A stretch of 32,000 bases of DNA from Sinorhizobium meliloti. Lineage in GTDB: Bacteria; Pseudomonadota; Alphaproteobacteria; Rhizobiales; Rhizobiaceae. The number at the start of each line of letters is the position of its first letter. Position 1 is the stretch's first letter. The position numbers were made by a program, and so were the translations under genes. The stretch spans positions 1,170,001-1,202,000 of the forward strand of contig NZ_JAGIOS010000002.1 in NCBI RefSeq assembly GCF_017876815.1, in the 5' to 3' direction. The notes beneath the pieces were generated by a model. It ran no database searches, was not told the DNA's origin, and worked only from the letters and a program-made list of their open reading frames with translations. Shown here in pieces: positions 288 through 23,256 of the stretch.

Positions 288-300
288 CGTCGTTTCCAGC

Positions 301-1029
301 TCAGTTATTGATTACGGTCGTGCCGTGCTGTGCGGCGCCGGCGATCAGCAGTGAGAGGTCCGTCTCGTCCTCGTCCTGCCGGCCGATGACCTTGCCGTCG
401 GCCTCGACGATGATCGGACCGGCGTGGCGGCGCGACACGTAGGAATCCGGCGCGAGCGCTTCGGCGGACCGGTGGAACAGCTGCCACCAGAGAGCCGCAT
501 CGACGGTCAGCCCGTTGCGCCGGATTCTTTCGAGAACCGTCACATCCATTCCCTTCCGGGCGGGCGAGACGACGATCTCGGCAGAGCCGGCTGTCTCGTC
601 GATGGCGACCTCAGCTTGCAGTCGAAAACGCTGCGCAAGAGCCTCGACAACCCTCAGTTCGCCGATTTCGGTGGCGCTACGGACCTCGACCCTCCCCGAA
701 CCCTGCGTGCGCAGACGCTCCGCTGCGAGATCGAGCACCGCATCGGCGGCGATCCACGCGTGCTGCCCGCCGCAGTCGACAGTTAGGCGTTCGGCGTCCG
801 CTGTTAGGCTCAGCGCATGCGGATTTGCCGATCGCACCGCCTCGAGGTTGTGAGCCAGGCGGCCGAAGCCGCCGAGGCCGAGCGCTGCGGAATAAAGGGC
901 GCAATCCCTGAGCGAGGGCACGAGGCCCGCGTCGAGCCGCGTGACCTGTATCAACCGCTCGAAGACCATCCGCAGTTCGCGAAGGCTGACAGTGAGGTTC
1001 GAAGGAAGGTTGGACTGGCAGGAACTCAT
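301..1029 (-). CDS. Hypothetical protein (242 aa), family not recognised
   Basis: Long ORF. The chosen ATG at 1029 forms an ATGA overlap (1026-1029) with the stop of the upstream gene. It lies 13 nt upstream of the dipeptidase start, so it is part of the same operon. Confidence 0.65.
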   Translation of the reverse strand: MSSCQSNLPSNLTVSLRELRMVFERLIQVTRLDAGLVPSLRDCALYSAALGLGGFGRLAHNLEAVRSANPHALSLTADAERLTVDCGGQHAWIAADAVLDLAAERLRTQGSGRVEVRSATEIGELRVVEALAQRFRLQAEVAIDETAGSAEIVVSPARKGMDVTVLERIRRNGLTVDAALWWQLFHRSAEALAPDSYVSRRHAGPIIVEADGKVIGRQDEDETDLSLLIAGAAQHGTTVINN

Positions 1030-2762: not shown

Positions 2763-2763
2763 T

Positions 2764-3483
2764 TCATTGTTCTCCTCGCAGGCGCGCGGCGCTTGCCGCC
2801 GCTGCTGCGACGACGATCCGGGCGCACTTGTCAGTATCGAAACCTGTGAACGGGCCGGAAAGCGCAAGCGCGCCGATGCATTCGCCCTGCGCATCGATGA
2901 TCGGGGCGGCGACCGCCGATACGGTCCGTGGCCCCTCGACCTCCGAAATGGCGTAGCCGCACTTGCGCACCCCGGTGATGGTCTCGTCATCCGGCAGTTC
3001 GACGCCCTGCGCCCTCAGCCGGTCGACTATTTCCGGACGCGAGAACGATACGAGCACCCGACCGAAGGCGGTGCGATCGAGGCGGAGCTGCGTTCCGATC
3101 CGAAGGTCCGCGCGAAGGACGCCGCGCGACTCGACCCGCCGAACGATGACGGCGGATTTTCCGTCGAGAACGGCGAGCGAGGCGGTCTCACCGCTCTCCG
3201 TGACCATCTCTTCCAGGACGCCTGCAAAGCGCACGCCGAGATTGGATTGTTCGAGCGCCATGGCCGCGTGTCCGACGATGCGAAGCGTCAAACGATAGCG
3301 GCCGTCGGGCGTCTGCTCGATCCATCCGGCTTCCACCAGAGTGACGAGGCGCTGATGGGCCGCACCCCGCGCTTCGCCGAGTTGGCGCGCGATGCCGACG
3401 AGGCGCAACGGCTCCGGTGCCGCGGCGATACACTCGAACGCTGCGAGGGTCTTGAGCACCGATGATAAGGGGCGAACCGACAT
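2764..3483 (-). CDS. IclR family transcriptional regulator
   Basis: N-terminal wHTH (LKTLAAFECIAAAPEPLRLVGIARQLGEARGAAHQRLVTLVEAGWIEQ) and a C-terminal IclR effector domain (SLAVLDG...RRVES, CGYAISEVE, AVAAPI.D..G..IGALALSGP). Start set at the ATG at 3483 (MSVRPLSS...); the 29 upstream codons in the track lie in AT-rich promoter DNA. Confidence 0.9.
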   Translation of the reverse strand: MSVRPLSSVLKTLAAFECIAAAPEPLRLVGIARQLGEARGAAHQRLVTLVEAGWIEQTPDGRYRLTLRIVGHAAMALEQSNLGVRFAGVLEEMVTESGETASLAVLDGKSAVIVRRVESRGVLRADLRIGTQLRLDRTAFGRVLVSFSRPEIVDRLRAQGVELPDDETITGVRKCGYAISEVEGPRTVSAVAAPIIDAQGECIGALALSGPFTGFDTDKCARIVVAAAAASAARLRGEQ

Positions 3484-3510
3484 TTTCTCAAAAATTCCGT
3501 AAAACCTCTT

Positions 3511-3527
3511 GTCTTCTATTAGAAGAC
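3511..3527. promoter_or_regulatory. Perfect palindrome GTCTTCTA-T-TAGAAGAC, candidate IclR operator
   Basis: 8-bp perfect inverted arms with a 1-nt spacer, 28 nt upstream of the IclR start codon, in the only AT-rich stretch of that upstream region. Confidence 0.4.
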
Positions 3528-3871
3528 ATCGTATGTATATGTTGGACATAGATCTGCTTTCTGTCAACATCGTTCTGCGCGAACGACGGGTATTTTTTCG
3601 CGCCGAATTGGTGCTCGCTTCATGAACAGAAAAATCGGAAGCCTTTCAGCGGCTTGAACTGTGAAGCTAGCATCGTCGCGGACGAGCCAATATCGCGCCC
3701 AGGCTCAATTGCCGGCCGCGACGCGCCAAATTTTAAGAATTGCGGGCGAGAGGCTCTCGGAGCACTTCCACTACGCGCTCAGGTTCGAGCCGAACGGTTC
3801 GGGCGTCAGCCCCGACCCGGACGCACCTCCCGGTCTCCGGGGCGGTGGTTTTCATCGGGCCCTGTCGCGAC

Positions 3872-4852
3872 CTACTGACCGAGAGAAACGACGACGTTGC
3901 CGATGGTTTTTCCGCTTTCGACCGCCTCGTGGGCCGCGGCGATGTCGTCCAGCGCGTATGTTCCGGCGATATGATGCCTGAGAAGCCCGGATGCGAGCTG
4001 CCCTTGAAGCGCGCTGACGGTCTCGGTGCGCGCTTCCGGCGACATCTCATAGACGATGAAGAACCGCGCCGCAGCGCCGGCGAGTATCATCGGAAAGAAC
4101 TCGAATGAGACTACGGGCTTACTGGAACCGTAGATCACGCAAAGACCGTCCCGCGCTATGATGCATGGCAGCATCGCGACATTCGTGGCGGCGTCCACCT
4201 CTATGACTCGGTCGACGCCGCGCCCGTGGGTAATGCCCCCTATCCGGTCGACGACCTCTTCCGTTCTGTAGTTGACCGTGTGGTCGGCTCCGAGCCTCGT
4301 GCAGATTTCGGCCTTTTCCGACGAACTGACGGTCGTGATGATACACGCCGCGCCATAAAGCCTCGCGAACTGAATGGCGTAAGCGCCGACTGCGCCCGCG
4401 CCTCCGGTCACCAGCACGGTTTTTCCGAATACGCCTCCGTCCGTGGTCACCGCGCGAAGTGCCGTCAGCGCCGGAATGCCGAGGCAGGCGCCCTCCTCGA
4501 AAGATACGTTATCGGGCAGGTGAACCGCCTGATCCTGTGGAAGGACGACATATTCGGCAGCCGTACCGTTCGAACGTCGCCAGGCGGCATTCCAGGTCCA
4601 TACCCGCTCGCCGATGCGCTCGCCTGCGACGCCCGTTCCCACGGCGTCGATAATGCCTGCGCCATCACTGTGCGGGATCATTCGCGGGGCAATGAGCGGC
4701 CGTCCCGCCCGCGCCTTCACATCGGACGGATTGACGCCGGACGCATGTATGCGGACGCGGACCTCTCCTGGGCCGGGAAGCGGGTCGGGAAGCCCGCCGA
4801 CCTCAAGGACATCGCGGGCGGCGCCATTCTTCTCGTACCATGCAGCTCTCAT
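3872..4852 (-). CDS. NADPH:quinone oxidoreductase / zinc-type alcohol dehydrogenase-like (MDR superfamily) protein
   Basis: 326 aa. GroES-like N-terminus (MRAAWYEKNG...GPGEVRVRIHASGVNPSDVKARAG) and a Rossmann motif (VLVTGGAGAVGAYAIQFA). The ATG at 4852 overlaps the stop of the upstream GGDEF gene (ATGA, 4849-4852). Confidence 0.9.
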   Translation of the reverse strand: MRAAWYEKNGAARDVLEVGGLPDPLPGPGEVRVRIHASGVNPSDVKARAGRPLIAPRMIPHSDGAGIIDAVGTGVAGERIGERVWTWNAAWRRSNGTAAEYVVLPQDQAVHLPDNVSFEEGACLGIPALTALRAVTTDGGVFGKTVLVTGGAGAVGAYAIQFARLYGAACIITTVSSSEKAEICTRLGADHTVNYRTEEVVDRIGGITHGRGVDRVIEVDAATNVAMLPCIIARDGLCVIYGSSKPVVSFEFFPMILAGAAARFFIVYEMSPEARTETVSALQGQLASGLLRHHIAGTYALDDIAAAHEAVESGKTIGNVVVSLGQ

Positions 4853-5892
4853 TGTCGTTGTCTCCGTAAGGCGTCGAGGATGACGAACCGGTCGCGGCCG
4901 TCACGCTTTGCCGAGTAGAGAGCCTTGTCGCAGCTGTTCAGCAGCTCCGCTCGTCGCTGCCCGTTGAGCGGGGCAAGGGCGCCGCCGATGCTGATGCGTG
5001 CAAGGACCGCCTTGCCGTCGACCTGGAAGGGTTCGCGAAAGGCCGCTACCAGCCGCTGCGAGACCGCTGCCAGGGCCGGTGCGTTGGGCGGATTTGGAAT
5101 GAAAACGGCGAATTCGTCGCCGCCCATGCGGATCGCGATATCGCCTGCTCTGATGACCGAGCGAATTCGGTTGGCGGCTTCGTACAAAACCTCGTCGCCG
5201 GCGTGATGGCCAAGCTCGTCGTTGATCGCTTTGAAACCATCCATGTCGAGATAAAGAGCGCCGAAGGTCTGACCCGCGGCGATGGCGTTGTGGAGAGCCC
5301 CGTCGACGATCGACGACAGGGCCGAGCGGTTGAACAGGCCGGTCAACGGATCGGTAATGGCCGCATTCTGTAGTTGGTTATGGGCGAGCCCCATCACGAG
5401 ATTTGCCTTCTGCAAGCTCAAAAGCGCACTGGCGACAGCCGCAAATCGGCGCAGGTTCTGCGCCTGCCCGTCGGAAAGATGCCTGGGCCGGACATCGAGG
5501 ATGCAGAAGCTGCCGACGGGCAGGTTCTCGAGATAGACGGGCGTGCCGGCGTAAAAGCGGAAGTGCGGGCTTCCGACCACATATGGTCTCGTCTTCAGCT
5601 CACGGTCTTCCGCCAGGTCCGGGACAATGAGGAGTTCGTCTGCGAAGACGACCCGCGTGCATATGGACATCTCGCGCGAGCATTCGCCGATCCTGAAGCC
5701 CGCCTGACCGGCGATCCGCTGCCAGTCTTCGTCGATGATGTTGATGGCGGCGTAAGAAACGTCGAAGATGCCTTTGGCAAGCTCGGCCAGGGTCGCGAGT
5801 TCGGGCGTGGGAGCGCTGCCGATTGAATTGAGCGAACGGACTGCGAGCAACCTTTGACGTTCGTTCGTGGGCATTCGTACGGCTTGTCCCAT
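4849..5892 (-). CDS. GAF domain-containing diguanylate cyclase (GGDEF) with RxxD I-site
   Basis: 347 aa. GAF-like N-terminal half, then DPLTGLFNR...YLDMDGFKAINDELGHHAGD...RAGDIAIRMGGDEFAV...ALYSAKRDGRDRF. RxxD sits 5 residues before GGDEF. GAGGGAG RBS lies upstream of the ATG at 5892. Confidence 0.9.
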   Translation of the reverse strand: MGQAVRMPTNERQRLLAVRSLNSIGSAPTPELATLAELAKGIFDVSYAAINIIDEDWQRIAGQAGFRIGECSREMSICTRVVFADELLIVPDLAEDRELKTRPYVVGSPHFRFYAGTPVYLENLPVGSFCILDVRPRHLSDGQAQNLRRFAAVASALLSLQKANLVMGLAHNQLQNAAITDPLTGLFNRSALSSIVDGALHNAIAAGQTFGALYLDMDGFKAINDELGHHAGDEVLYEAANRIRSVIRAGDIAIRMGGDEFAVFIPNPPNAPALAAVSQRLVAAFREPFQVDGKAVLARISIGGALAPLNGQRRAELLNSCDKALYSAKRDGRDRFVILDALRRQRQ

Positions 5893-6013
5893 TTCTATCT
5901 CCCTCGTTCGTGAAAGATGGCGATCCAGGCGACCCGTCCCTTGCCAGGGGAAAGTTCAGCGGCCTTCCGACCTATCGCAGAAAAATGTCGGCGCGCTATC
6001 CTTAAACCTTAGA

Positions 6014-6124
6014 GCGGGATGAGGAAAAATGTGTGCGGTTTTCCGCCCGCATCCCGCGTCTCAACTTCTTGGAATCGATCACGTTCATGCTTTCAGGTCG
6101 ACCCGACCTAAGAGCATCGTGATC
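6014..6124. repeat. Two adjacent extended imperfect hairpins (REP/RIME-like intergenic element or structured RNA)
   Basis: Hairpin 1: GCGGGATG (6014-6021) pairs with CATCCCGC (6050-6057), enclosing GCGG-TTTT-CCGC (6035-6046). Hairpin 2: GATCACG..ATGCT..AGGTCG-ACC-CGACCT..AGCAT-CGTGATC (6077-6124), 18 paired positions. Confidence 0.35.
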
Positions 6125-6327
6125 TAGAGTAATGCGGGGACTCTCGTTCACCCGCCGAAGTTTTGCGCAGTTCACCACCGAAACATGCAAATTTGAGGGT
6201 TGTTCAACACAGAATACCATTCAATCGTGACGAAACGCGGCGAAGCGGCTCAAGTCCGGGCGTAGCGTCGCAGAATAGTTGCGGCAGCGTATCAGCCGAA
6301 CCGGCTGTCCTCAGTGAGTAATTGGAC

Positions 6328-7560
6328 ATGATCCTCAATCATCGGCTCACGCGTATTACCGTCGGCATCCTCCTCCTGGCGCTTGCAATTGCCGTCCTGC
6401 TGCCCGGATTGACTGGCTACAGCAGCCTGGATGGGACGGTAAACGCACGCCTTGCCGTCATAAATGCGCCGATCGACGGCGAGATCGAGAAACCGGCGCC
6501 TCGAATCGGAACGCCGGTGGCAGAGGGTGAAACGCTCGCGACGATCCGTAACCAGCGGGTCAACAGGGCGATCCTGGCGTCGCTGCGCACCGATCATCGA
6601 ACCGCCGTCGAGCGCGTCGCGGCGCTGCGGCGGGAGCGGGATGAACTCGCGCGATTGCGGGATGATCTTGCCGGGCGGCTCGACATCTTCAGGAACGCGA
6701 CCATCGCCAGCCTGGAGCGCGAGGTCCAGATCCTGCAGAAAAGGGTCGAGGTGTCGCGCGCGCAGGACGTCGTGGCAAGGGTTGACCTCGTCCGGCGGCA
6801 GGACCTGGAGTCCAAGGGGATCTTCACCCGCAAGATGGTGGAGGCGGCGCAAGCCGCCGGTGCGGCCGCCGGCGGCGAGCTCGAGATCAGCAATTTGACG
6901 GTGGAGTTGCTGCAGCAACGCCTCAACGCCGTGCGTCAGGGGATATTCCTCGTCGGCGACGGCCAGAACGACGTGCCTTACTCCCGGCAGCGCCAGGACG
7001 AGGTGATCGTTCGCATCCACGATCTCAATACGCGAATCGCGGAGAATGAGGCACGGGCAAAACAGACGGACCAGCAGATAGCCGAGGAGGAGAGGCGGGT
7101 TCTAAGTCTCGAAGCCGCGACGATCCCGTCGCCCTTCGATGGCGTCGTGTGGAGCCGTAACGTCATTAGCGGTTCCAATGTCGTTCTGAACAACGAGATG
7201 ATGCGCATCCTCGATTGCCGCGAGTTGTTCGTCGATATTCTGGTCCCTGAAGTCGATTATGACGAGATCTATCCCGGCCGCGAGGCGGAGGTCCGGCTTT
7301 TCGGTCGCGGCGATGTGTTCCGGGGCCGCGTACAGGCGGTCAAGGGATCGTCCGCGGTCGTGGAAAAGGACTCGCTGGCGGCCAACGAGCCGGAGACGGA
7401 GGAGCGAAATGCCCGCATCCGCGTCACGCTCGCTCCGTCGGCACTCAACACCGATTTTGCGAATTTCTGTCAGGTTGGGCGAACGGCGCAGGTTCGTTTC
7501 TCCAAGCGCAGCCTTCACCTGGCGCAGTGGGTTCAAAGCTTGTGGTTCAGTCTCTTCTAG
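6328..7560 (+). CDS. bgsB: HlyD-family membrane fusion-like protein, partner of the glucan synthase (BgsB-like)
   Basis: N-terminal TM segment (ITVGILLLALAIAVLLPGL), lipoyl-like hairpin motifs (LDGTVNARLAVINAPIDGEI, GETLATIRNQ), a long coiled-coil middle and a beta-barrel C-terminus (IPSPFDGVVWSRNV.SGSNV). The track start is TTG at 6322; ATG at 6328 is preferred. The symbol is from memory of the S. meliloti bgsBA architecture. Confidence 0.75.
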   Translation: MILNHRLTRITVGILLLALAIAVLLPGLTGYSSLDGTVNARLAVINAPIDGEIEKPAPRIGTPVAEGETLATIRNQRVNRAILASLRTDHRTAVERVAALRRERDELARLRDDLAGRLDIFRNATIASLEREVQILQKRVEVSRAQDVVARVDLVRRQDLESKGIFTRKMVEAAQAAGAAAGGELEISNLTVELLQQRLNAVRQGIFLVGDGQNDVPYSRQRQDEVIVRIHDLNTRIAENEARAKQTDQQIAEEERRVLSLEAATIPSPFDGVVWSRNVISGSNVVLNNEMMRILDCRELFVDILVPEVDYDEIYPGREAEVRLFGRGDVFRGRVQAVKGSSAVVEKDSLAANEPETEERNARIRVTLAPSALNTDFANFCQVGRTAQVRFSKRSLHLAQWVQSLWFSLF

Positions 7561-9536
7561 CGCTGGCGCCGACCTTAATCGTCATCGCCTTTTTTCTCCT
7601 CGGCCCGTTCAACTGGTCGCGCCACAGGAGCTGGTCGCGCGCCGTTACCTGCGCGTTCGTCGCTGCAATCGCGCTGCGTTACATGCTCTGGCGCTTCACA
7701 GAAACCGTGCTTCCCTATCCGAACGACGGCCCCAATTTCTATTGGGTCTGGTTCGTGTTCATCGTCGAGTTCCTCGCCTTTTCGGAGGTCGTTCTCTTCC
7801 TCATCCTGATGAGCCGCTACGTCGACCGCAGCGCCGAGGGGAATCGGCTCGAGCGGCAGTTTTTTGAGCGCGATGAACGGGAGCTCCCCACGGTCGACGT
7901 CTTCATCCCGACCTATAACGAGCCTCTCGACGTTCTCGAACGCACGATCGTCGGGGCGCTTGCGCTCGACCATCCCAAGGACAAGCTGAATGTCTATGTG
8001 CTCGACGACGGCCGGCGCGACTGGCTCAGGACCTTCTGCGAGGGGCGCGGTGCGATCCATGTGACGCGCAGCGACAACGCGCATGCCAAGGCCGGCAACA
8101 TGAACAACGGTTTGCGCGTCAGTTCAGGCGATTTCATCGCCGTCTTCGATGCCGATTTCGTACCCTATCGCAGTTTCCTCCGGCGCACCTTGCCCTTCTT
8201 CATGGACGACACGATCGGCATCGTGCAGACACCGCAGCACTTCTTCAACGTCGATCCGATCCAGTCCAATCTCGGACTGGAGAACCTATGGCCCGATGAG
8301 CAGCGCCTGTTTTTCGACGAGATCGCGCCGAGCCGCGACGGCTGGGACGTGAGCTTCTGCTGCGGCTCCTGTTCGATCGCAAGGCGCAAGGCGGTAGACG
8401 CCATCGGCGGTTTTCCAACCGAGTCGATCACCGAGGATCTACTGACGACGCTGTCGATGCTCAACAGGGGGTTCAAGACGCGCTATCTCAACGAGCGGCT
8501 TTCGATGGGGCTGGCGGCCGAGAATCTCACCGGCTATTTCGTCCAGCGCGAGCGCTGGTGCCAAGGCGGTATCCAGACGCTCTACCTGCACAACGGCCCC
8601 TTGCGCGGGCCCGGCCTCTCGCTCTTTCAGCGCGTCATGTTCCTGCCGATGTCGTGGCTCGTGCAATATCTGGTCCGTTTCATCGTGCTTCTCATTCCTA
8701 TCGTCTATCTGTGGTTCGGCGCCCTGCCGCTCTACTTCACGGATGTCGCCGACTACGTCTCGAACCAGGTTCCCCTGCTGGCGGCCTATTTCCTGCTGAT
8801 GTTCTGGCTCACGCCGACGCGCTACCTTCCGCTGGTCTCCACCGCCGTCGGTACCTTCTCGACCTTCCGCATGCTGCCAACCGTCCTGTCGAGCCTCGTC
8901 AGGCCCTTCGGCAAGCCCTTCAAGGTGACCCCGAAGGGCAGCAGCAACGAGGCAAACGTCTTCGACGCCTATACCTTCACCTGGATCGCCGGCTTCATCG
9001 TGGTTACGGCTTTGGGACTCCTGATCAACATCGTTCCGGAGACGGCGCGGGTAGAGGGGTCGTTCTCGGCGATCGCGGCGCTTTGGTCGGGCATCAACAT
9101 CGTGGTGCTGATCATCGCCTCGCTTATCTGCTTCGAGAAGCCGCGGCGCCTGCTGCAGGCGTTCAAGCTCGACGAGCCGGTGGATCTGGACGGTGTCGAA
9201 GGCCGGCTCGTGAGCCTCTCACTGGACAAGGCGGTGGTGGCGGTTTCGACGGAAACGCGGTTCAAATCGACCAAGGTGAGGCTGAACATCGAAGGCTTCG
9301 CGCCGCTCGAAGCGGATCTGAAGCAGGTGACACAGCGGCGCGGGGACATCACGCGCACCGGCGACAAGCAGCGTTACTACCTTCATCTTCACTATGACCT
9401 GCGTGGATTCGAGCGGGACAAGATGATCATCAAGCTCTACACCGGGCGCTATTCCCGGGACGTTCCCGATATCGACAAGATCGCCGTTTCCGTAAATTTG
9501 CTATTGCGCGCTTTCGGTCGCACGCGAACCGCCTGA
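7527..9536 (+). CDS. bgsA: Family 2 glycosyltransferase, BcsA/CrdS-like processive beta-glucan synthase with a non-canonical C-terminal c-di-GMP-type domain (BgsA-like)
   Basis: Motifs seen: VFIPTYNEP, YVLDDG, FDADF, TEDL, QRERWCQG (QxxRW), plus multiple TM helices on both sides of the catalytic domain. The GTG start at 7527 overlaps bgsB by 34 nt (alternative GTG at 7542). No bcsB-like gene follows. Confidence 0.85.
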   Translation: MGSKLVVQSLLALAPTLIVIAFFLLGPFNWSRHRSWSRAVTCAFVAAIALRYMLWRFTETVLPYPNDGPNFYWVWFVFIVEFLAFSEVVLFLILMSRYVDRSAEGNRLERQFFERDERELPTVDVFIPTYNEPLDVLERTIVGALALDHPKDKLNVYVLDDGRRDWLRTFCEGRGAIHVTRSDNAHAKAGNMNNGLRVSSGDFIAVFDADFVPYRSFLRRTLPFFMDDTIGIVQTPQHFFNVDPIQSNLGLENLWPDEQRLFFDEIAPSRDGWDVSFCCGSCSIARRKAVDAIGGFPTESITEDLLTTLSMLNRGFKTRYLNERLSMGLAAENLTGYFVQRERWCQGGIQTLYLHNGPLRGPGLSLFQRVMFLPMSWLVQYLVRFIVLLIPIVYLWFGALPLYFTDVADYVSNQVPLLAAYFLLMFWLTPTRYLPLVSTAVGTFSTFRMLPTVLSSLVRPFGKPFKVTPKGSSNEANVFDAYTFTWIAGFIVVTALGLLINIVPETARVEGSFSAIAALWSGINIVVLIIASLICFEKPRRLLQAFKLDEPVDLDGVEGRLVSLSLDKAVVAVSTETRFKSTKVRLNIEGFAPLEADLKQVTQRRGDITRTGDKQRYYLHLHYDLRGFERDKMIIKLYTGRYSRDVPDIDKIAVSVNLLLRAFGRTRTA

Positions 9537-9571
9537 TCAGCGGTCTGCAGGTTGGGCGGGATGCCTCCGGT

Positions 9572-10285
9572 CTACCTGCCCTTCGGGGCATAGAGCGTGC
9601 GGGAGCGCTCGAGGTGTCTGATCATCGCCTGCTCGGCTTCGTCCGGATTGCCACTGCGGATACAATCTATGATTTCCTCGTGTTCCGTGAGGGTTACGTT
9701 CTCCCGGCCGGTCCAGATCAGCATTTCCGTATGATACTCTTTGAGCCAGCCGAGCATCGCCTCGCTGACGGCGGTGTATATCGGATTGCCGGAAATCTGC
9801 GCAATGCGGGTGTGGAACGCCATGTCCGCGGCGATGAAGGCATCGGAATCCTCGAGTGCCGCCTGCTGCCGCTTCAAGATTTCCTCCAGCGCCGCGATAT
9901 CGCCGGCATCGGCTCGGCTTGCCGCCTCCCGTGCCATTCCGCGTTCGAAGAAGATGCGCGCGCTCTTCAGGTGTTCCAGCGAATCCGAGGAGGCCGCAAG
10001 CATGATCTTGGCGGCGGCATCCACCTGCCGAAGCAGCGACCGCGCCGTCGGCTGCAGCACCTTGGCACGCTCGCCATGCGAAATCTCGATCAGACCCATA
10101 TTGGCAAGCGCCTGCATCGCCTCGCGAATGGCCGGGCGTCCCACCTGGAAGCGCTCCATCAGCATCCGCTCGGAAGGCATCTCGTCTCCCGGTTGCAGCT
10201 CGCCGGTTTCGATCAACGCCTTCAGCCGCGCAAATACCTCGTCGGAGAGTTTCCTGCGGATAATTGGCTCGGATTGCATGACCAT
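9572..10285 (-). CDS. GntR family (FadR/FCD subfamily) transcriptional regulator
   Basis: KLSDEVFARLKALIETGELQPGDEMPSERMLMERFQVGRPAIREAMQALANMGLIEISHGERAKV is a GntR wHTH. It is followed by an all-helical FCD-like domain (FH..IA..SGNP). Divergent from the RLP gene. Confidence 0.9.
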   Translation of the reverse strand: MVMQSEPIIRRKLSDEVFARLKALIETGELQPGDEMPSERMLMERFQVGRPAIREAMQALANMGLIEISHGERAKVLQPTARSLLRQVDAAAKIMLAASSDSLEHLKSARIFFERGMAREAASRADAGDIAALEEILKRQQAALEDSDAFIAADMAFHTRIAQISGNPIYTAVSEAMLGWLKEYHTEMLIWTGRENVTLTEHEEIIDCIRSGNPDEAEQAMIRHLERSRTLYAPKGR

Positions 10286-10423
10286 GTGAACTCCAGCAGC
10301 TTGCGGCTCATTCTCTATAGGCAGGATTCTTCCGGCAGGCGAGATTTCTCTTGCCTAACTCAGATACTCATTATACCAGTTGCGCGAAAGACGCTACTGA
10401 ATCCAATGTAAAGAGCGCTGCCC

Positions 10424-11680
10424 GTGCTACGCATCACCTACCGCATCGAGACCCCGGGAGATGTCGAATTCCTGGCGAAGAAGATCGCAAGCGACCAGTC
10501 GACCGGAACGTTCGTGCCGGTTCCGGGCGAAACCGAAGAGCTGAAGGCGCGGGTGGCCGCGCGCGTACTGGCTATCCGCCACCTCGAACCCGCCGATCGG
10601 GCCTCATGGCCGGACGAGGCGGGAAGCGCCACGCGCTTCAACCGCGCCGATGCGGAGATTGCCTTCCCGCTCGATGCGGTGGGAACGGATCTTTCCGCCT
10701 TGATGACCATTGCGATCGGCGGCGTCTATTCCATCAAGGGAATGACCGGCATCCGCATCGTGGATATGAAGCTGCCGCCGGAGTTCGCGGCTGCGCATCC
10801 GGGTCCGCAGTTCGGTGTCGTCGGCAGCCGGCGCCTGACCGGTGTCGAAGGCCGCCCGATCATCGGCACGATCGTCAAGCCGGCGCTGGGTTTGCGGCCA
10901 GAGGAAACCGCCGTACTCGTCGGCGAGCTGCTTTCCTCCGGGGTGGATTTCATCAAGGACGACGAGAAGTTGATGAGCCCGGCCTATTCGCCGCTGAGTG
11001 CGCGGATAGCAGCCATCATGCCGAGAATCCTCGACCACGAGCAGAAGACCGGCAAGAAGGTCATGTATGCCTTCGGCATATCCCATACCGATCCCGACGA
11101 GATGATGCGAAACCACGATCTGGTGGTCGCGGCCGGCGGCAATGCGGCGGTCGTCAACATCAATTCCGTCGGAATGGGCGGCGTCGCCTTCCTGCGCAAG
11201 CGCTCCGGCCTCGTGCTCCACGCCCATCGCAACGGCTGGGACATCCTCACGCGCCATGGCGGTTTGGGAATGGAGTTTTCGGTCTGGCAGCAGTTCTGGC
11301 GGCTCCTCGGGGTGGATCAGTTCCAGATCAACGGCATCCGCGTCAAATACTGGGAGCCTGACGAGAGCTTCGTGAAGTCCTTCGAGGCGGTGAGCACGCC
11401 GCTCTTTACCAAGGACGATTGTCCGCTGCCGGTCGTGGGGTCGGGCCAATGGGGCGGACAGGCGCCCGAGACCTATGCACGGACCGGGCACACGACCGAT
11501 CTGCTCTATCTCTGCGGCGGCGGCATCGTCAGCCATCCGGGCGGACCCGGCGCCGGCGTCAGGGCCGTACGTCAGGCCTGGGAGGCGGCAGTCGCCGGGA
11601 TCCCGCTGGCGGATTATGCCAGGGATCACCCCGAACTGGCGCAATCGCTCGAAAAATTCGCCGACGGCAAGGGCGCCTGA
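10424..11680 (+). CDS. RuBisCO large-subunit-like protein (form IV RLP), not a bona fide carboxylase
   Basis: 418 aa with a GTG start. GTIVKPALGLRP (RuBisCO has GTIIKPKLGL), DFIKDDEKL (KDDE with the carbamylated-Lys position kept), LHAHRNG (HR pair), GSGQWGG and CGGGIVSHPGG. The K177 equivalent is Ala. No small-subunit or cbb genes are nearby. Confidence 0.9.
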   Translation: MLRITYRIETPGDVEFLAKKIASDQSTGTFVPVPGETEELKARVAARVLAIRHLEPADRASWPDEAGSATRFNRADAEIAFPLDAVGTDLSALMTIAIGGVYSIKGMTGIRIVDMKLPPEFAAAHPGPQFGVVGSRRLTGVEGRPIIGTIVKPALGLRPEETAVLVGELLSSGVDFIKDDEKLMSPAYSPLSARIAAIMPRILDHEQKTGKKVMYAFGISHTDPDEMMRNHDLVVAAGGNAAVVNINSVGMGGVAFLRKRSGLVLHAHRNGWDILTRHGGLGMEFSVWQQFWRLLGVDQFQINGIRVKYWEPDESFVKSFEAVSTPLFTKDDCPLPVVGSGQWGGQAPETYARTGHTTDLLYLCGGGIVSHPGGPGAGVRAVRQAWEAAVAGIPLADYARDHPELAQSLEKFADGKGA

Positions 11681-11703
11681 CTTCAACGCGACCGGAGGTC
11701 CCG

Positions 11704-13032
11704 ATGCACATTCCCCTGCTCAGCTACTACGGCGACGATCTGACCGGCTCGACCGACGTGATGGAGGCACTCTCCTCCCAGGGCGTCGAAACCGCGTTGT
11801 TTCTCAAGGTGCCCGAGCCTTCGCTCTTCGAGCGCTTCGCCCGTTGCCGCGCCTTTGGGCTCGCGGGCACCAGCCGCAGCCAGACGCCGGGCTGGATGGC
11901 GGAAAACCTTCCGCCGGCCTTTCTGTGGCTGAAGGCGCTGAAGGCGGAGATCGCCCATTACAAGGTCTGCTCGACCTTCGATTCGAGCCCCGGTGTCGGC
12001 AACATAGGCAAGGCGATCGAGATCGGACGGGATGTCTTCGGCGCCGCACCGGTACCGCTCGTCATCGGCGCACCGCAGATCCGTCGCTACACCGCCTTCG
12101 GCAATCTCTTCGCCGCCTTTCGCGGCGAAACCTATCGCATCGATCGCCATCCGGTGATGAGCAGGCATCCGGTAACCCCCATGAACGAGGCGGATATCCG
12201 CCTTCACCTTTCGCGTCAGACATCGCTCAGCGCGGCTCTTGTAGATCTCGTGCAACTCGCGTCGCCGGACGTGGACGCGTTCGCCGACAGGGCTCTCGCG
12301 GATCACCAACTCGTCCTTCTCGATGTCGCGGATGAGGGGAGCCAAGCCGTCGTCGGGCGGCAGCTCTGGCGGACGCGAACGGCCGAAGGGCAATTCGTCT
12401 GCGGCTCGTCCGGCATTGAATATGCACTCGTTCGCGAATGGCGTCGCCTTGGCCTGATCGGCGAAGCGCCGGCATTCGCGCCGCCTGGACCGGTCGACCG
12501 GATCGCGGTGGTTTCCGGCAGCGTCTCTCCGACGACGGAGCGGCAAATCCGTCATGCGATCCAGAACGGTTTCGACGGGATCGCGCTCGATGCAGTCGCA
12601 CTCGCGGCGACGGATGCCGGCTCGGCACTCGAGGATGCCGTCGCGCGCGGGCTGGCCTCTCTGGAGAAGGGCCGGAGCGTTCTTCTCTACACCGCGCTCG
12701 GCCCCTCTGCCGATCGGGGCGATGCCATTCCTGTTGAGGATGGCTCGCGCCACCGGATCGGTGAACGGCTCGGATCGCTCCTGAGAGAGCTGGTGACGCG
12801 CGCCGGGCTCCGCCGCGCTGTCGTCGCCGGGGGAGATACGTCGAGCCACGCCCTTGGCCAGCTCTCTTTCGACGCGCTTACATTGCGGCTGCCGCTTCCG
12901 CAGTCGCCCGGCTCCCCCCTCTGCACCGCGCATAGCGCCGATCCCAGGGTGGACGGCATGGAGGTCGCTCTCAAGGGCGGTCAGGTCGGCCTCGACGACT
13001 ATTTTTCGATGATCCGGGATGGACGGGCCTAA
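11704..13032 (+). CDS. DUF1537 family four-carbon/acid-sugar kinase
   Basis: ATG at 11704 preceded by GGAGG (11693-11697), 23 nt after the RLP stop. Motifs: YYGDDLTGSTDV, HPVTPM, VVAGGDTSSHAL, ALKGGQVG. The 95 upstream codons in the track are Arg/Gly-rich and overlap the RLP gene. Confidence 0.85.
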   Translation: MHIPLLSYYGDDLTGSTDVMEALSSQGVETALFLKVPEPSLFERFARCRAFGLAGTSRSQTPGWMAENLPPAFLWLKALKAEIAHYKVCSTFDSSPGVGNIGKAIEIGRDVFGAAPVPLVIGAPQIRRYTAFGNLFAAFRGETYRIDRHPVMSRHPVTPMNEADIRLHLSRQTSLSAALVDLVQLASPDVDAFADRALADHQLVLLDVADEGSQAVVGRQLWRTRTAEGQFVCGSSGIEYALVREWRRLGLIGEAPAFAPPGPVDRIAVVSGSVSPTTERQIRHAIQNGFDGIALDAVALAATDAGSALEDAVARGLASLEKGRSVLLYTALGPSADRGDAIPVEDGSRHRIGERLGSLLRELVTRAGLRRAVVAGGDTSSHALGQLSFDALTLRLPLPQSPGSPLCTAHSADPRVDGMEVALKGGQVGLDDYFSMIRDGRA

Positions 13033-13071
13033 GGCGCTTCCGAGCAAGAGTGCGTAGCTCTGAAACCACTC

Positions 13072-15363
13072 TCATAGCAGCTTGTCGAGCGTTATCGGCA
13101 GATCGCGAATGCGTTTTCCAGTCGCGTGAAAGATGGCATTCGCAATTGCCGCCGCCGCGCCCGTTATGCCGATTTCACCGACCCCGTGTGCGCCGAGAGG
13201 CGTATGCTCGTCGGGAATGTCGTTGTAGATGATCTCGATATGCGGCACGTCGAGATGCACCGGGACATGATATTCGGCCAGTGACGGATTCATGATCCGC
13301 CCGCGGCGCGTGTCGAGCAGGGTTTCCTCGGCGAGAGCCATGCCGATCCCCATGACGATCCCGCCGCGAAGCTGGCTGACGGCCGTTTTCGGATTGAGGA
13401 TCCGGCCGCAATCGAAGGAGCCGAGCCAGCGCGAGATCCGCACTTCGCCCGATTCATGATTGACGCGAGCTTCGCAGAATTGCGCGCCGTAGGAGGCCAT
13501 GGAGTACTTCATCACCTCGAATGGCATTCCCGAAGTCTCTTCCACTTCAATGAAGTCACGGCCGGCGCGCTTCAGGATCGAGGCGTAGGTTTCGCCCCTG
13601 CTTTCCTCGCCGGACACGAAGAGCCCGCCGTCACGCGCCTCGATCTCTACGTTCGCGCCCGCCAACGGCGAGCCGTTACCCGCGAGTTTGACGAGTTCGC
13701 GATGGGCCTTTTCGACGGCCACCTGCACCGCTGCGGCAATGCTGCCGGTCTGGCTAGAGCCGCCGGCGATGATTGGCGAATCCGGCAGGTCGGAGTCTCC
13801 GTAGCGGAATGAAACCATCTCAAGTGGCAGGCCGAGACGGTCGGCTGCGTGCTGAATCTGCACCGTTGCCGTTCCCATGCCCATTTCGTTCGCCGCCGCT
13901 TGCACGACTGCACTGCCATCGGCGGAAATGCGAAGGCGAACTGCGGCGGGAAAGCGGAAGACTGGGTAATAGGCCGTCGCGACGCCTTGCCCGATCAGCC
14001 ACTTTCCATCGCGCTGCGAACACGGTTCGGCCGGCCGCCCGCTCCAGCCGAACTTTTCCGCGCCGCGCCGAAAGGCCTCGACGAGATGACGGCTCGAAAA
14101 TTCCGTGCCCTTCGTCGGATCTTTTTCGGGCTCGTTCAAGCGGCGAAGTTCGACCGGATCGATCTTCATCTCGTAGGCGAGTTCGTCGATGGCCGATTCC
14201 AAAGCGAAAGTGCCGATCGATTCCCCCGGCGCACGCATCCATGTGTTGGCGACGGTATCGAGATTGACGACCTTCTGACCGACGGACATTGTCCGCGAGG
14301 CGTAGAGATGCCGCGGGGTCAATGAAAATTGTTCGGGAAACTTGGCGTGGGTCGTCGTCGCGGTCACCCCGGTGTGAATGATCGCGGCGAATTTTCCATC
14401 CTCGTCGGCGCCGAGCGCAACGCGCTGTTCCGAAGGCGTGCGGCCGCCGATGAGGCGGAAAACCTCTTCGCGCGAGAGCGCCATCTTCACGGGGCGATTG
14501 GCTACTTTGGCCGCCGCCGCACAAAGCGCGGTGTGGTTCCACAAGGCGGCCTTGCCGCCGAAGCCGCCGCCGACGAAAGGCGCGATGACGCGAACGTTCT
14601 CCGCGTTGAGGCCGAATATGCCGGCGAGTGCATGCTTGCAGCCGTTTACGAATTGGGTCGAGTCGAAAACCGTCAGCCTGCCGTCTTCGTCCCAGGCGGC
14701 GATCGCCGCATGCGGCTCTATGGCGTTGTGGTTGTAGTGCGGTGTCCGATAGACGTTGTCGACCTTGAATGCCGCCGCCGCGAAAGCCTTCTCAGGGTTG
14801 CCGATCGCGAGTTCCGGATCTTCGCCCATGACGGCGGACGGCACGGTCGCTTCCGCCTTGAGATCCTCGAATGAGACGCGCGCTGTTTTCTCAACATATT
14901 CGACGCGCACGAGCGAAGCCGCATGCTCCGCCTGTTCCAGCGTTTCGGCAACGACAACCGCGACGGGCTGCCCATCCCAACTGATCTCGCCGTCCTGCAG
15001 GACAGCGAGGTCACTGGCCGCGAAGCCCTTGTCCATGTGCCTTACATCCATCAGCGGCGGCCGTTTCATCTTCGGTGCGTTTTGGGCGGTGACGGTGGCT
15101 ATTACGCCTGGGCTCCTCTCGGCATCGGAGGCGTCGATCGTGGTAATCCGCCCCTTGGCGATCGTGCTGCAGACGGGAACGGCATAGGCCAGATTTTCGA
15201 TCTCGAATTCCGCGGCGAAGCGCGCTTCACCTTTCACCTTCCGTTGCCCGTCGACGCGGCTGACGGGCGTGCCGAGGTAACCATGTTTGTGGAGGAGCGG
15301 GTCCGGCGCCTTGTCGGGCATGAACTGGACGACGGTTTCCATAAGCTTCTGCAGGACGCTCAT
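13072..15363 (-). CDS. Xanthine dehydrogenase family molybdopterin-binding subunit (PaoC-like aldehyde oxidoreductase large subunit)
   Basis: 763 aa. Motifs: GGGFGGK, MRAPGE, GRILNPKTA.SQ..GG..MG.GMAL.EE, GVGE.G..G...AIANA, and the C-terminal end ITLDKLL, as I recall for E. coli PaoC. GGAGGG RBS lies inside the end of the upstream gene. Confidence 0.9.
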   Translation of the reverse strand: MSVLQKLMETVVQFMPDKAPDPLLHKHGYLGTPVSRVDGQRKVKGEARFAAEFEIENLAYAVPVCSTIAKGRITTIDASDAERSPGVIATVTAQNAPKMKRPPLMDVRHMDKGFAASDLAVLQDGEISWDGQPVAVVVAETLEQAEHAASLVRVEYVEKTARVSFEDLKAEATVPSAVMGEDPELAIGNPEKAFAAAAFKVDNVYRTPHYNHNAIEPHAAIAAWDEDGRLTVFDSTQFVNGCKHALAGIFGLNAENVRVIAPFVGGGFGGKAALWNHTALCAAAAKVANRPVKMALSREEVFRLIGGRTPSEQRVALGADEDGKFAAIIHTGVTATTTHAKFPEQFSLTPRHLYASRTMSVGQKVVNLDTVANTWMRAPGESIGTFALESAIDELAYEMKIDPVELRRLNEPEKDPTKGTEFSSRHLVEAFRRGAEKFGWSGRPAEPCSQRDGKWLIGQGVATAYYPVFRFPAAVRLRISADGSAVVQAAANEMGMGTATVQIQHAADRLGLPLEMVSFRYGDSDLPDSPIIAGGSSQTGSIAAAVQVAVEKAHRELVKLAGNGSPLAGANVEIEARDGGLFVSGEESRGETYASILKRAGRDFIEVEETSGMPFEVMKYSMASYGAQFCEARVNHESGEVRISRWLGSFDCGRILNPKTAVSQLRGGIVMGIGMALAEETLLDTRRGRIMNPSLAEYHVPVHLDVPHIEIIYNDIPDEHTPLGAHGVGEIGITGAAAAIANAIFHATGKRIRDLPITLDKLL

Positions 15364-15364
15364 C

Positions 15365-16348
15365 TTACCCTCCGGCCAACTCGCCCAACACGCCGACGAT
15401 CGTGCGCTTCGCCAACTCGATTTTGAACTCGTTATGGGCGAGGCCTCTTGCCGGCGCGAGTTCGGCTTCCGCCGCCTGTCTGAAGCTCTCCGCGCCAGCG
15501 TTCGCTCCCGCCAGAACGCGCTCGGCTTCGGTAGCCCGCCACGGCTTGTGCGCTACGCCGCCGAGTGCCAGGCGGACGTTCCTGACCTTGCCGCTGTCGA
15601 CCTCCAGAGCGGCAGCCACGCTGACCAGGGCAAAAGCATAGCTCGCGCGGTCCCGGACCTTCCTGTAGAGCGAGCGCCTGGCAAAGCCGAGCGGCGGGAT
15701 CTCGATGCCGGTTATGAGTTCGCCGGGCTGCAGGTCGGTCTCCATATCGGGTGTATCCTCAGGCAAACGGTGGAACTCCTCGAAGGCAATCGTACGCGCG
15801 CCGCCGGGCCCGATGACGTTCACCTTCGCATCGAGAGCCGCCAGGGCGACGCACATATCGGACGGATGCGTGGCGATGCAGCTGTCCGAGGCTCCGAGGA
15901 TCGCGTGCATGCGATTGAAGCCCCCGATCGCATCGCATCCCGCTCCCGGTGCACGCTTGTTGCAGCGCGCGGCGTGGTCGTAGAAATAGAGGCAACGCGT
16001 CCGTTGCATGAGGTTGCCCGCAACGGTCGCCATGTTGCGGATCTGGCCCGATGCCCCGAACACGATCGCCTGGGCTAGAAGCGGATAGCGGTCCCGCACC
16101 ACCGGATGGCCGGCGACCGCCGTGTTCCTCACCGTAGCACCGATAACAAGGCCGCCGTCCGGCCGCTCCTCGATCCGGTCCAGGGGCAGCCCGGTCACAT
16201 CGACCAGCGCGTCCGGCTGTTCGATGTTCTCGCGCATCAGATCGACGAGGTTCGTGCCGCCGCCGAGGAGCTTCGCATTCGGCGTCTTGGAGAGGAGCTT
16301 CACCGCGGCTTCCAGATCTGCTGCTCTCGCATAGGCGAAGCTCTTCAT
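15365..16348 (-). CDS. FAD-binding subunit (PaoB/CoxM-like) with a four-Cys cluster motif
   Basis: MKSFAYARA..L.EAV...........LGGGTNL.DLM, and ATVAGNL.QRTRCLYFYD...RCNKR.PG.GCDA...NR.HAILG.S..CIATHPSD. ATGA overlap (16345-16348) with the 2Fe-2S subunit gene. Confidence 0.9.
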   Translation of the reverse strand: MKSFAYARAADLEAAVKLLSKTPNAKLLGGGTNLVDLMRENIEQPDALVDVTGLPLDRIEERPDGGLVIGATVRNTAVAGHPVVRDRYPLLAQAIVFGASGQIRNMATVAGNLMQRTRCLYFYDHAARCNKRAPGAGCDAIGGFNRMHAILGASDSCIATHPSDMCVALAALDAKVNVIGPGGARTIAFEEFHRLPEDTPDMETDLQPGELITGIEIPPLGFARRSLYRKVRDRASYAFALVSVAAALEVDSGKVRNVRLALGGVAHKPWRATEAERVLAGANAGAESFRQAAEAELAPARGLAHNEFKIELAKRTIVGVLGELAGG

Positions 16349-16911
16349 TTCGCCACCTCGCGGTCAAATGCGCTGTGGATCGCCTCGCAGATGCCGACAT
16401 AAGCCCCGCAACGGCAGAGATTGCCGCTCATGCGTTCCTTGATCTCAGCGTCCGAGAACTCGATCCTGGCCGCGGCCATATCCCCGGTCACGGCGCTCGG
16501 CAAGCCGTTCTGAAACTCTTGGAACATTCCGATCGCCGAACAGATCTGCCCGGGCGTGCAATATCCGCATTGGAAACCGTCATGCTCTATGAATGCGACC
16601 TGAAGCCGGTGAAGCTCGCCGCTGGCAATGCCTTCGATCGTGGTGATCTCCCGGCCTTCGAGCTGAACCGCCAGCGACAGGCAGGACAGGACGCGCTGGC
16701 CGTCCACCAGAACCGTGCAGGCCCCGCAGGCGCCCTGGTTGCATCCCTTCTTGGGCCCGGTAAGGCTCAAATGTTCACGCAGAACGTCCAGCAGAGACGT
16801 GCGCGGGTCGATCGAAAGCGAATGGTCGACGCCGTTGATCTTCAGCAGGATCAGCGCTGAGCCGGCAGGCGGGATGGGTGCCGCCTTCGGCGTTCGGTCG
16901 GGAGATGGCAT
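16345..16911 (-). CDS. (2Fe-2S)-binding small subunit (PaoA-like), no Tat leader
   Basis: CNQGACGACTV, FQCGYCTPGQ and CRCGAY motifs. Start set at the ATG at 16911 (MPSPDRTPK...) with GAGAGGG upstream. The 42 extra track codons have no support. No RR twin-arginine motif precedes the ferredoxin domain. Confidence 0.9.
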   Translation of the reverse strand: MPSPDRTPKAAPIPPAGSALILLKINGVDHSLSIDPRTSLLDVLREHLSLTGPKKGCNQGACGACTVLVDGQRVLSCLSLAVQLEGREITTIEGIASGELHRLQVAFIEHDGFQCGYCTPGQICSAIGMFQEFQNGLPSAVTGDMAAARIEFSDAEIKERMSGNLCRCGAYVGICEAIHSAFDREVAK

Positions 16912-17077
16912 GGCGCACCCTCTCGATTTGCATCGGCCGCCGCATCTTGCGCCCGGAGCGGCGCAGGTCAGTCGCGCGCGGCGGCAGGGGTTGCCAGAAC
17001 CCGGCAATCGGATGAATGTTCCGAAGATTATTCGCATGCGGCACGACCGCGGCCGGGCAGGGACAGCGATTGGCGAG

Positions 17078-17572
17078 ATGATCTATTTCACGGGCGACAC
17101 GCATTTCGGCGACCCGCGTGTGCTTCGCATCGACCGCCGTCCATTTTCCAACATGGCCGAGCATGATGCCGCCCTGATCGCCAATTGGAACGAAACCGTC
17201 TCGCCGCAGGACGAGGTCTGGCACCTTGGCGACTTCGCGGCAAAGAGAAACGGGCTTGCCGAAGATATTCTGTCCCGGCTGAACGGCCGCAAGCATCTGA
17301 TCGTGGGCAACAACGATCCGAACGACACGACCGGGGCGGGCGGCTGGCACAGCGTGCAGCATTATGCGGAGCTGATGGTGGATGGGCGGCTGCTCGTCCT
17401 TTGCCATTATCCGTTCCGGACCTGGAACCAGATGGGGAAGAAGTCGATCAACCTGCACGGCCATTCCCACGGCAGGTTGAAGCCGATGCCACGGCAGTTC
17501 GATGTGGGGGTGGATGCGAGAGGCCTGCGTCCGGTCAGCCTGGTTGATATTCTCCCCCAATCCGCGCGGTAG
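17078..17572 (+). CDS. Metallophosphoesterase family protein
   Basis: MIYFTGDTHFGD (DxH), WHLGDF (GD), VGNND (GNHD-like), LCHYP and LHGHSHG motifs. The start is uncertain: in-frame ATGs also occur at 17035 and upstream, none with a strong RBS. Confidence 0.8.
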   Translation: MIYFTGDTHFGDPRVLRIDRRPFSNMAEHDAALIANWNETVSPQDEVWHLGDFAAKRNGLAEDILSRLNGRKHLIVGNNDPNDTTGAGGWHSVQHYAELMVDGRLLVLCHYPFRTWNQMGKKSINLHGHSHGRLKPMPRQFDVGVDARGLRPVSLVDILPQSAR

Positions 17573-17655
17573 AACATTTCTGCTTTACGCTGCGGGAACG
17601 TGCGGGCTCGATAGCTGTTCGATGTGAGGGCCTGCGTCGAATACGAGGTGCTTCA

Positions 17656-20252: not shown

Positions 20253-20750
20253 ATGATATCGCTGACGGTCAACGGCAGCCCGCATCAGATCGACGCAGAC
20301 CCCACGACGCCGCTGCTTTACGTGCTGCGCGACGAGCTGGCGCTCAACGGGGCCAAATACGGCTGCGGACTTGGGCAGTGCGGCTCCTGCACCGTCGTCG
20401 TCGATGGCGAGGCGGTGCTTTCCTGCATGGTACCGATCATGCTGCTGGAAGGGCGGGAGGTCACCACCATCGAGGGCCTGGGAACGATCGACGAGCCGGG
20501 GCCGCTGCAGGAGGCGTTCATCGAGCTGCAGGCGGCGCAATGCGGCTATTGCATTCCGGGCATGATGATGAGCGCGCATGCGCTTTTGCGCCGTAACGCG
20601 CAGCCGAGCGAAGAGGAAATCCGCGAGGCGCTGGCGACCAATCTTTGTCGTTGCGGCACCCATATGCGGATTCTCGCGGCGATCCGGCGCGCCGGCGAAC
20701 TGATGCAGGCCGCCTCGTTGCCTGCCACTGACCAGGGGAGGGCCGGCTGA
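20253..20750 (+). CDS. (2Fe-2S)-binding subunit (IorA-like)
   Basis: MISLTVNG..., CGLGQCGSCTV, AQCGYCIPG and CRCGTH motifs. GGAGGA RBS at 20241-20246. The ATG at 20253 lies 2 nt after the cytochrome c stop. Confidence 0.9.
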   Translation: MISLTVNGSPHQIDADPTTPLLYVLRDELALNGAKYGCGLGQCGSCTVVVDGEAVLSCMVPIMLLEGREVTTIEGLGTIDEPGPLQEAFIELQAAQCGYCIPGMMMSAHALLRRNAQPSEEEIREALATNLCRCGTHMRILAAIRRAGELMQAASLPATDQGRAG

Positions 20751-23028: not shown

Positions 23029-23256
23029 TCACGCCCGTTCGTCACGCAGGGCGTTGACGATCTCGAGCGTCACGGGCGGTGCGTCCGGACGAGGCGACAG
23101 GAGAGGAATTCCATTACGCTCGCCGCCGCTGCGCGGCCGGCGCAGAGAACGCCTCGCCAGTTCGGAAATTACCTCGCCGACGCTCCGCTGCTGTTGGGTC
23201 GCCATTGCCTTTGCGGCGATCAGGACATCGTCGTCAATAGCCAAGGTCGTTCTCAT
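23029..23256 (-). CDS. VapB-like (ribbon-helix-helix) type II antitoxin, no cognate toxin gene adjacent
   Basis: MRTTLAIDDDVLIAAKAMA...SVGEVISELARRSL...NGIPLLSPRPDAPPVTLEIVNALRDE is a typical antitoxin pattern. ATG at 23256 with GAGG upstream. The track start at 23277 is TTG. Confidence 0.7.
   Translation of the reverse strand: MRTTLAIDDDVLIAAKAMATQQQRSVGEVISELARRSLRRPRSGGERNGIPLLSPRPDAPPVTLEIVNALRDERA

Follow-up and report, generated by a model that had tools for sequence, protein, structure and literature searches.

A RuBisCO-like protein and a DUF1537 kinase of Sinorhizobium meliloti as the probable distal operon of a split D-apiose pathway

What does a RuBisCO-like protein (RLP) do in Sinorhizobium meliloti when its gene is accompanied by that of a DUF1537 kinase and by no other recognisable acid-sugar gene? 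The question is raised by a 32,000-nucleotide (nt) stretch of contig NZ_JAGIOS010000002.1, here called the window (GC content ~62%), in which the locus DNA is a 100% match to plasmid pSmeSM11d, the pSymB-type megaplasmid of S. meliloti SM11. A preliminary description of this stretch placed an RLP gene and a DUF1537 kinase gene 23 nt apart beside a divergent GntR regulator, a layout that the open reading frames (ORFs) and Pfam domains confirm, and it regarded the substrate and product of the pair as undefined. We propose instead, at a probability of about 85%, that the two genes form the distal operon of the published D-apiose/D-apionate pathway, in its RLP-decarboxylase variant. This assignment is based on orthology, the placing of the RLP in an equivalog family, synteny with relatives, gene intactness in SM11, a shared promoter box and purifying selection, and the enzyme activities given below for S. 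meliloti are predictions from these sequences.

The RuBisCO-like protein and the kinase

The RLP gene (10424-11680, + strand, 418 aa) begins at a GTG with AAGAG 8 nt upstream, while an ATG further upstream, at 10406, runs straight into a TAA. Its product carries the Pfam domains RuBisCO_large (2.9e-74) and RuBisCO_large_N and scores 791.3 bits against the NCBIfam equivalog for the 3-oxo-isoapionate-4-phosphate decarboxylase OiaX (NF042437, cut-off 700) over model positions 2-412 of 412, comparable to the 785.6 bits of OiaX from Rhizobium phaseoli. The second-best model, rubisco_III, gives 212 bits (cut-off 497), and the models for form II RuBisCO and MtnW give 132 and 136 bits (cut-offs 489 and 409). 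The RLP is 82% identical over its full length to the oiaX product of R. etli CFN42 (RHE_RS26630; 15020-16315 of the examined stretch of plasmid p42f), and the nearest solved structure is that of an uncharacterised Burkholderia RLP (3NWR, 340 bits). At least 1000 public contigs carry an identical sequence, almost all members of its cluster are full length, and RefSeq already names the protein OiaX. By these sequence measures the RLP belongs to the characterised OiaX equivalog family; both the pathway in which such an RLP and a kinase cooperate and the OiaX label of this exact RLP are already known, and the view that substrate and product are undefined does not hold. The RLP decarboxylase is named OiaX, OiaC being the non-RLP decarboxylase of another pathway variant, and the listing of OiaC beside OiaK and OiaT in the preliminary description was a minor slip.

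Active-site residues were mapped by alignment to the numbering of spinach RuBisCO, using a spinach sequence in which each of the 20 canonical residues checked was at its expected position. The RLP retains K175 (K152), K201 (K178), D203 (D180), E204 (E181), H294 (H268) and R295 (R269), and replaces K177 with A154 and H327 with Q301. It shares with RuBisCO forms I-III and with MtnW, the enolase of 2,3-diketo-5-methylthiopentyl-1-phosphate (DK-MTP-1-P), the large-subunit fold, the KDDE motif of carbamylated lysine and metal ligands, and the HR pair, but differs from them in these two substitutions and in its low scores against their models. The OiaX-family pattern, in which K177 and H327 are replaced and the other six residues are kept, is present in full, and every mapped residue is the same in R. 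phaseoli OiaX. A154, Q301 and the sub-cut-off scores set the protein apart from the CO2-fixing RuBisCOs of forms I-III. The preliminary description, which had KDDE and HR retained, alanine at K177, glutamine (by hand alignment) at H327 and, from these, no CO2 fixation, is upheld on these residues.

These substitutions bear on a function proposed for the same protein elsewhere. A 2022 study of biotin in R. etli (PMC8914248) called RHE_RS26630 a previously uncharacterised Rubisco-like protein and proposed that it is a biotin-independent carboxylase, since rlp mutants fail to regain growth in biotin-free subcultures and 14C-bicarbonate uptake changed between CIAT652 and its rlp mutant. A carboxylation-type role supporting biotin-independent growth could also be read into S. 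medicae, where an intact OiaX is retained under purifying selection without the kinase. We consider such a role highly improbable for the S. meliloti protein: K177 and H327 are replaced, scores against the RuBisCO models fall far below the cut-offs, and the phenotype could be indirect. Moreover, PMC8914248 left the apiose pathway unconsidered, offered no enzymology and contains inconsistent 14C numbers. Its "uncharacterised Rubisco-like" protein is the oiaX product of an apiose cluster, which reframes the interpretation of that study.

The kinase gene (11704-13032, + strand, 442 aa) has an ATG start preceded by GGAGG and begins exactly 23 nt after the RLP stop. Its product combines the domains SBD_N (PF07005, 1.5e-49) and NBD_C (PF17042, 2e-29), which is the DUF1537 architecture, and its translation contains the DDLTGS and GGDTS motifs reported earlier. 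It shares this two-domain fold, with DDxTG and GGDTS, with both OiaK and the 3-oxo-tetronate kinase OtnK; the OiaK model (NF042436) is the best in NCBIfam and far ahead of OtnK (NF043035), at 464.2 against 147.8 bits, but neither score reaches its cut-off (700 and 350, respectively). Annotated otnK genes share just 27-30% identity with the kinase. We considered and rejected the idea that the low OiaK score reflects a diverged S. meliloti kinase, since kinases within complete clusters score alike: that of R. phaseoli, 63% identical and located inside a complete cluster, reaches 469 bits and is likewise below 700. OiaX-linked kinases (compared at 11704-13032 of the window and at 16248-17582, 24239-25552 and 4223-5572 of the examined stretches L001, L008 and L009) seem from these scores to form a clade of their own outside the OiaK model. 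For the S. meliloti kinase, and for those of R. etli, Shinella and Marivivens, the annotation stops at the family level ("four-carbon acid sugar kinase family protein"), and the clade could be annotated by context. In Rhizobium, Shinella, Ensifer and S. fredii the kinase gene directly follows oiaX; in Marivivens it lies within the same cluster, and its clustering with apnO extends to five other genera. Based on orthology and synteny, rather than on a model cut-off, we propose that the kinase is a 3-oxo-isoapionate 4-kinase, with the function of OiaK by context and a position outside the modelled OiaK clade.

Pathway genes and a shared promoter box on the megaplasmid

Family-model searches covering the whole window detected neither ApnO nor a lactonase, a sugar dehydrogenase or a transporter of the matching type. 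Complete clusters occur in relatives. In R. phaseoli and on p42f of R. etli CFN42 (RHE_RS26580-26635) the order is nanR, oiaX, kinase, lerI, derI, apnO, substrate-binding protein (SBP), DUF2291, ATPase, permease, apsD and apnL; nanR is divergent, lerI is TIM-like, derI is RpiB-like and belongs to the DerI equivalog, apsD encodes a Gfo/Idh/MocA dehydrogenase, and apnL passes the ApnL equivalog at 1054 bits. The SBP of the R. etli cluster is 100% identical to PDB entries 5IBQ and 4RY0, of which 5IBQ is the D-apiose complex from the Enzyme Function Initiative, a link that would tie this cluster to the work of Carter and co-workers. That work (Carter et al. 2018, Nat Chem Biol) reportedly defined the D-apiose/D-apionate pathway, including an RLP-decarboxylase variant made up of ApsD, ApnL, ApnO, OiaK and OiaX.

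A tblastn search with R. phaseoli ApnO recovered an 82%-identical copy on 75 Sinorhizobium replicons, the same number as carry the RLP locus. In S. meliloti RCAM1750 this copy heads an operon of apnO, SBP, DUF2291, ATPase, permease, apsD and a gene for a 639-aa protein that passes the ApnL equivalog (835 bits, cut-off 750). All seven ORFs are intact in SM11 (record positions 1351785-1343571), where they lie on the same replicon upstream of the window, at approximately -40.6 to -32.4 kb in its coordinates; ~41.9 kb separate the apnL stop from the nanR stop, and the nine pathway genes and nanR are all intact. The genomic associations of OiaX are accordingly present on one replicon, namely a DUF1537 kinase, ApnO, ApnL, ApsD and an apiose-type transporter, of which the S. 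meliloti SBP matches the sequence of the R. etli SBP structure at 541 bits. Compared with the R. etli cluster, the S. meliloti proteins are orthologous throughout (regulator 71% identity, OiaX 82%, kinase 63%, ApnO 82%, SBP 86%, ATPase 79%, permease 87%, ApsD 70% and ApnL 56%, the last passing its equivalog), and the divergent nanR/oiaX-kinase layout and the promoter box are the same. The two arrangements differ in that apnO to apnL lie upstream of nanR in S. meliloti rather than downstream of the kinase, that the S. meliloti operons are ~42 kb apart, and that neither half contains lerI or derI.

A closer match is provided by Shinella sumterensis, Ensifer adhaerens and S. fredii GR64, in which a single block runs apnO-SBP-DUF2291-ATPase-permease-apsD-apnL, nanR (- strand), oiaX-kinase. 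Content, order and orientation are the same in S. meliloti, neither version has lerI or derI, and the S. fredii proteins are 82-91% identical to their S. meliloti counterparts; the difference is a ~42-kb block between apnL and nanR in S. meliloti and S. medicae. Since S. medicae shares the interruption, the insertion predates the divergence of these two species and postdates their split from S. fredii. The block contains two-component and c-di-GMP genes, ABC and TRAP transporters and a probable bgsBA pair, and window positions 1-9571 are its distal end. The earlier statement that the pair stands alone is thus correct within the 32-kb window and incorrect for the replicon, on which the apnO to apnL operon lies ~42 kb upstream and is contiguous with the pair in sister taxa. 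The situation that the preliminary description had itself named as speaking against an undefined function is the one found here, with the RLP inside a characterised isofunctional family, pathway genes nearby and the kinase joined to them by orthology and synteny; the link it drew between an RLP with a DUF1537 kinase and D-apiose or 3-oxo-isoapionate chemistry was sound. Because the cluster is split by ~42 kb, neighbourhood methods with a window of ~10 genes would wrongly call the S. meliloti pair an orphan.

Upstream of the pair, the regulator gene (9572-10285, - strand) is divergent from oiaX across an intergenic stretch with the divergent promoters (10286-10423, read directly), so that position 10286, where the preliminary description began its interval, is the first base of this stretch and not a gene start. 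The regulator combines GntR and FCD domains, passes the NCBIfam NanR subfamily model (NF003011; 362 bits, cut-off 260), is 71% identical to the R. phaseoli regulator adjoining oiaX and keeps the same position in every relative examined. A simple sigma-70 consensus scan found no promoter in the nanR-oiaX intergenic region, and terminator-like matches lay inside coding sequence. A conserved box, ACTCATTATACCAGT, is located at 10366-10380 (+ strand), 44 nt upstream of the oiaX GTG, with a second hexamer, ACTCAG (10358-10363), 8 bp upstream of it; this is the sole match in the window at two or fewer mismatches, where 0.03 are expected by chance. The box ACTCATYATACCAGT precedes apnO in S. meliloti, S. 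fredii, R. phaseoli and S. medicae, and the box precedes oiaX in all five genera examined. The apnO box of S. meliloti and S. fredii likewise has a hexamer, ACTCAT, 8 bp upstream, and AC...T.ATACCAG is invariant over 10 promoter regions. E. coli NanR binds tandem GGTATA hexamers, of which TATACC is the complement, and the architecture of the box fits a NanR-type operator. We infer that the box acts as a putative operator of this type and that the divergent NanR-like regulator probably controls both operons through ACTCATYATACCAGT; the two separated operons most likely still form one regulon.

The split invites the reading that the pair acts on another 3-oxo acid sugar, independently of the apiose genes: the pair is physically apart from apnO to apnL, has its own regulator and includes a kinase under the OiaK cut-off. 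Promiscuity is also conceivable, as ApnO chemistry on D-erythronate would equal that of a 3-dehydrogenase (2026 JBC, PMC12994016). This reading is very unlikely in our view, given that the RLP belongs to the OiaX equivalog and has 82% identity to, and the same active site as, an orthologue in a complete cluster, that the nearest relatives have nanR-oiaX-kinase and the apn genes in one contiguous block, and that the oiaX and apnO promoters have the box in common. The flanking oxidoreductase and bgsBA-like genes are, moreover, not conserved neighbours of the pair.

Predicted pathway and its maintenance

In the pathway that we propose, D-apiose would be taken up by the RbsB-type ABC transporter and oxidised by ApsD to a lactone, which ApnL would open to D-apionate, and ApnO would convert D-apionate to 3-oxo-isoapionate. 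The seven genes for these four steps, all intact, would be those of the megaplasmid operon whose end lies ~42 kb upstream of nanR. The DUF1537 kinase (11704-13032) would then phosphorylate 3-oxo-isoapionate, and OiaX (10424-11680), with its predicted carbamyl-lysine/Mg2+ site, would decarboxylate 3-oxo-isoapionate-4-phosphate to L-erythrulose-1-phosphate. Chromosomal eryC, tpiB and rpiB may finally carry L-erythrulose-1-phosphate to erythrose-4-phosphate. D-apiose is a constituent of plant pectin and apiosylated flavonoids, and from this plant origin the regulon is plausibly relevant to rhizosphere life.

The last of these steps depends on genes outside the cluster. The Sinorhizobium/Shinella-type clusters examined contain neither lerI nor derI, and searches of the S. 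meliloti megaplasmids found only a generic rpiB at 34% identity and no LerI-type match. In R. leguminosarum (NZ_CP030761.1, 1164043-1167582) apnO starts ~140 nt after the kinase with no lerI or derI between them; as both are present in R. etli and R. phaseoli, the isomerase genes appear to be an insertion specific to the etli/phaseoli clade. The absence of lerI and derI raises the possibility that the RLP has the role of OiaT, a transcarboxylase/hydrolase, which is unlikely given its OiaX equivalog score and its 82% identity to R. etli OiaX. The OiaX product is L-erythrulose-1-phosphate, reportedly identical with L-3-tetrulose-4-phosphate, an intermediate of erythritol catabolism (Barbier et al. 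2014). In the ery locus of a close relative, Sinorhizobium sp. K101, TpiB has 72% identity to the LerI encoded in the cluster, and RpiB scores 253 bits against the DerI equivalog, above its cut-off of 240. The chromosomal erythritol locus of S. meliloti has eryC and an eryR-tpiB-rpiB sub-operon (PMC3599248). We infer that the ery isomerases serve the apiose pathway in S. meliloti, and we reject the idea that all of the missing genes are on pSymB, the isomerases being chromosomal and in the ery locus.

Several points weigh against the apiose assignment. The kinase lies below the OiaK equivalog cut-off (464 vs 700 bits), as, by score or by family-level annotation, does every OiaX-linked kinase examined. 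The ery isomerases belong to another regulon, and their co-induction is assumed. The orthologue assayed by Carter et al. would be the one indicated by the PDB link. Searches of the accessible literature for S. meliloti apiose catabolism turned up no data on growth, expression or enzymes, and no text match for SMb20392, SMb20393 or SMb20394. Two further sets of observations concern the state of the genes themselves. S. medicae ml29 (plasmid pMl3, CP140910.1; positions 1157-8241 and 3972-6686 of the examined stretches L011 and L012) has neither apnL nor the DUF1537 kinase: the loss of apnL is clean, with 64 nt separating apsD from the next gene, and the kinase is gone together with a PaoABC-like operon, leaving 71 nt between oiaX and a metallophosphoesterase gene. 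In S. meliloti RCAM1750 (CP050512.1, stretch 12925-15534) oiaX has a 1-bp indel close to its 3' end that joins its reading frame to that of the kinase in a single 869-aa RLP-kinase ORF, and the RLP coding sequence is not in the gene table of that record; in addition, the S. meliloti records CP140921.1 and CP140944.1 align to the kinase over residues 1-405 only (92%).

These losses could mean that the pathway fell out of use in S. meliloti and S. medicae after the 42-kb interruption, and that the pair is an intact leftover. The clean deletions in S. medicae, the RCAM1750 fusion and the two shortened kinase matches would all fit such decay. We nevertheless regard it as unlikely, since SM11 has intact copies of nanR and of all nine pathway genes, the exact RLP is found on at least 1000 contigs with nearly all cluster members full length, and both boxes are conserved. 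The aberrant assemblies are unreviewed GenBank records and may be the product of sequencing or assembly errors. Substitution rates point the same way. Between S. meliloti and S. fredii the ratio of nonsynonymous to synonymous rates (dN/dS) is 0.065 for oiaX, 0.11 for the kinase and 0.063 for nanR, and the kinase shows 0.18 within S. meliloti. Values against more distant taxa are 0.09-0.27, with dS near saturation, so that overall oiaX spans 0.065-0.16 and the kinase 0.11-0.27. The low dN/dS indicates that the three genes are maintained by purifying selection.

The S. medicae plasmid also retains, alongside both promoter boxes, an intact nanR (dN/dS 0.066 in comparison with S. meliloti) and an intact oiaX (0.087), and its OiaX is a genuine orphan. 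The conservation of this nanR-oiaX module without kinase and lactonase, together with the biotin phenotype of rlp in R. etli and R. phaseoli, could point to a second role of OiaX that needs neither the kinase nor apiose, which we think quite improbable. With the pathway published in 2018 and the exact RLP labelled OiaX in RefSeq, the value of the locus as a discovery is small; what remains of interest is that the kinase clade has a gap in its annotation, that the cluster is split and that S. medicae has an orphan OiaX.

Neighbouring genes

In no relative do the genes that flank the locus in the window adjoin the cluster. On the 3' side, domain and family models identify a PaoABC-like Mo/FAD/2Fe-2S oxidoreductase operon (17037-13072, - strand) convergent to the kinase, in agreement with the oxidoreductase operon described earlier beside the pair. 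This operon and the bgsBA-like genes upstream were considered as partners of the pair and rejected, being absent beside the cluster in all relatives. The bgsBA-like genes encode a HlyD-like adaptor (6322-7560) that overlaps a cellulose-synthase-like GT2 (7527-9536); by family and pSymB position they are probably bgsBA (SMb20390-91). The product of bgsBA is a mixed-linkage beta-glucan synthase activated by c-di-GMP. Just upstream of this pair, within the ~42-kb block, is a gene for a GAF-GGDEF protein (4849-5892, - strand).

An Rfam scan of the whole window gave no match. A 654-aa ORF (1026-2990, - strand) adjoining an IclR regulator has no Pfam or NCBIfam match, and in RCAM1750 two hypothetical proteins are annotated at the equivalent place. 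A second xanthine-dehydrogenase-family enzyme has its molybdopterin-binding subunit encoded in SM11 (20750-22995) by two overlapping ORFs of 353 and 395 aa, whose RCAM1750 counterpart is one gene for 746 aa (23252-25492 of the examined stretch); the two-ORF form is likely a frameshift, a pseudogene or a sequencing error.

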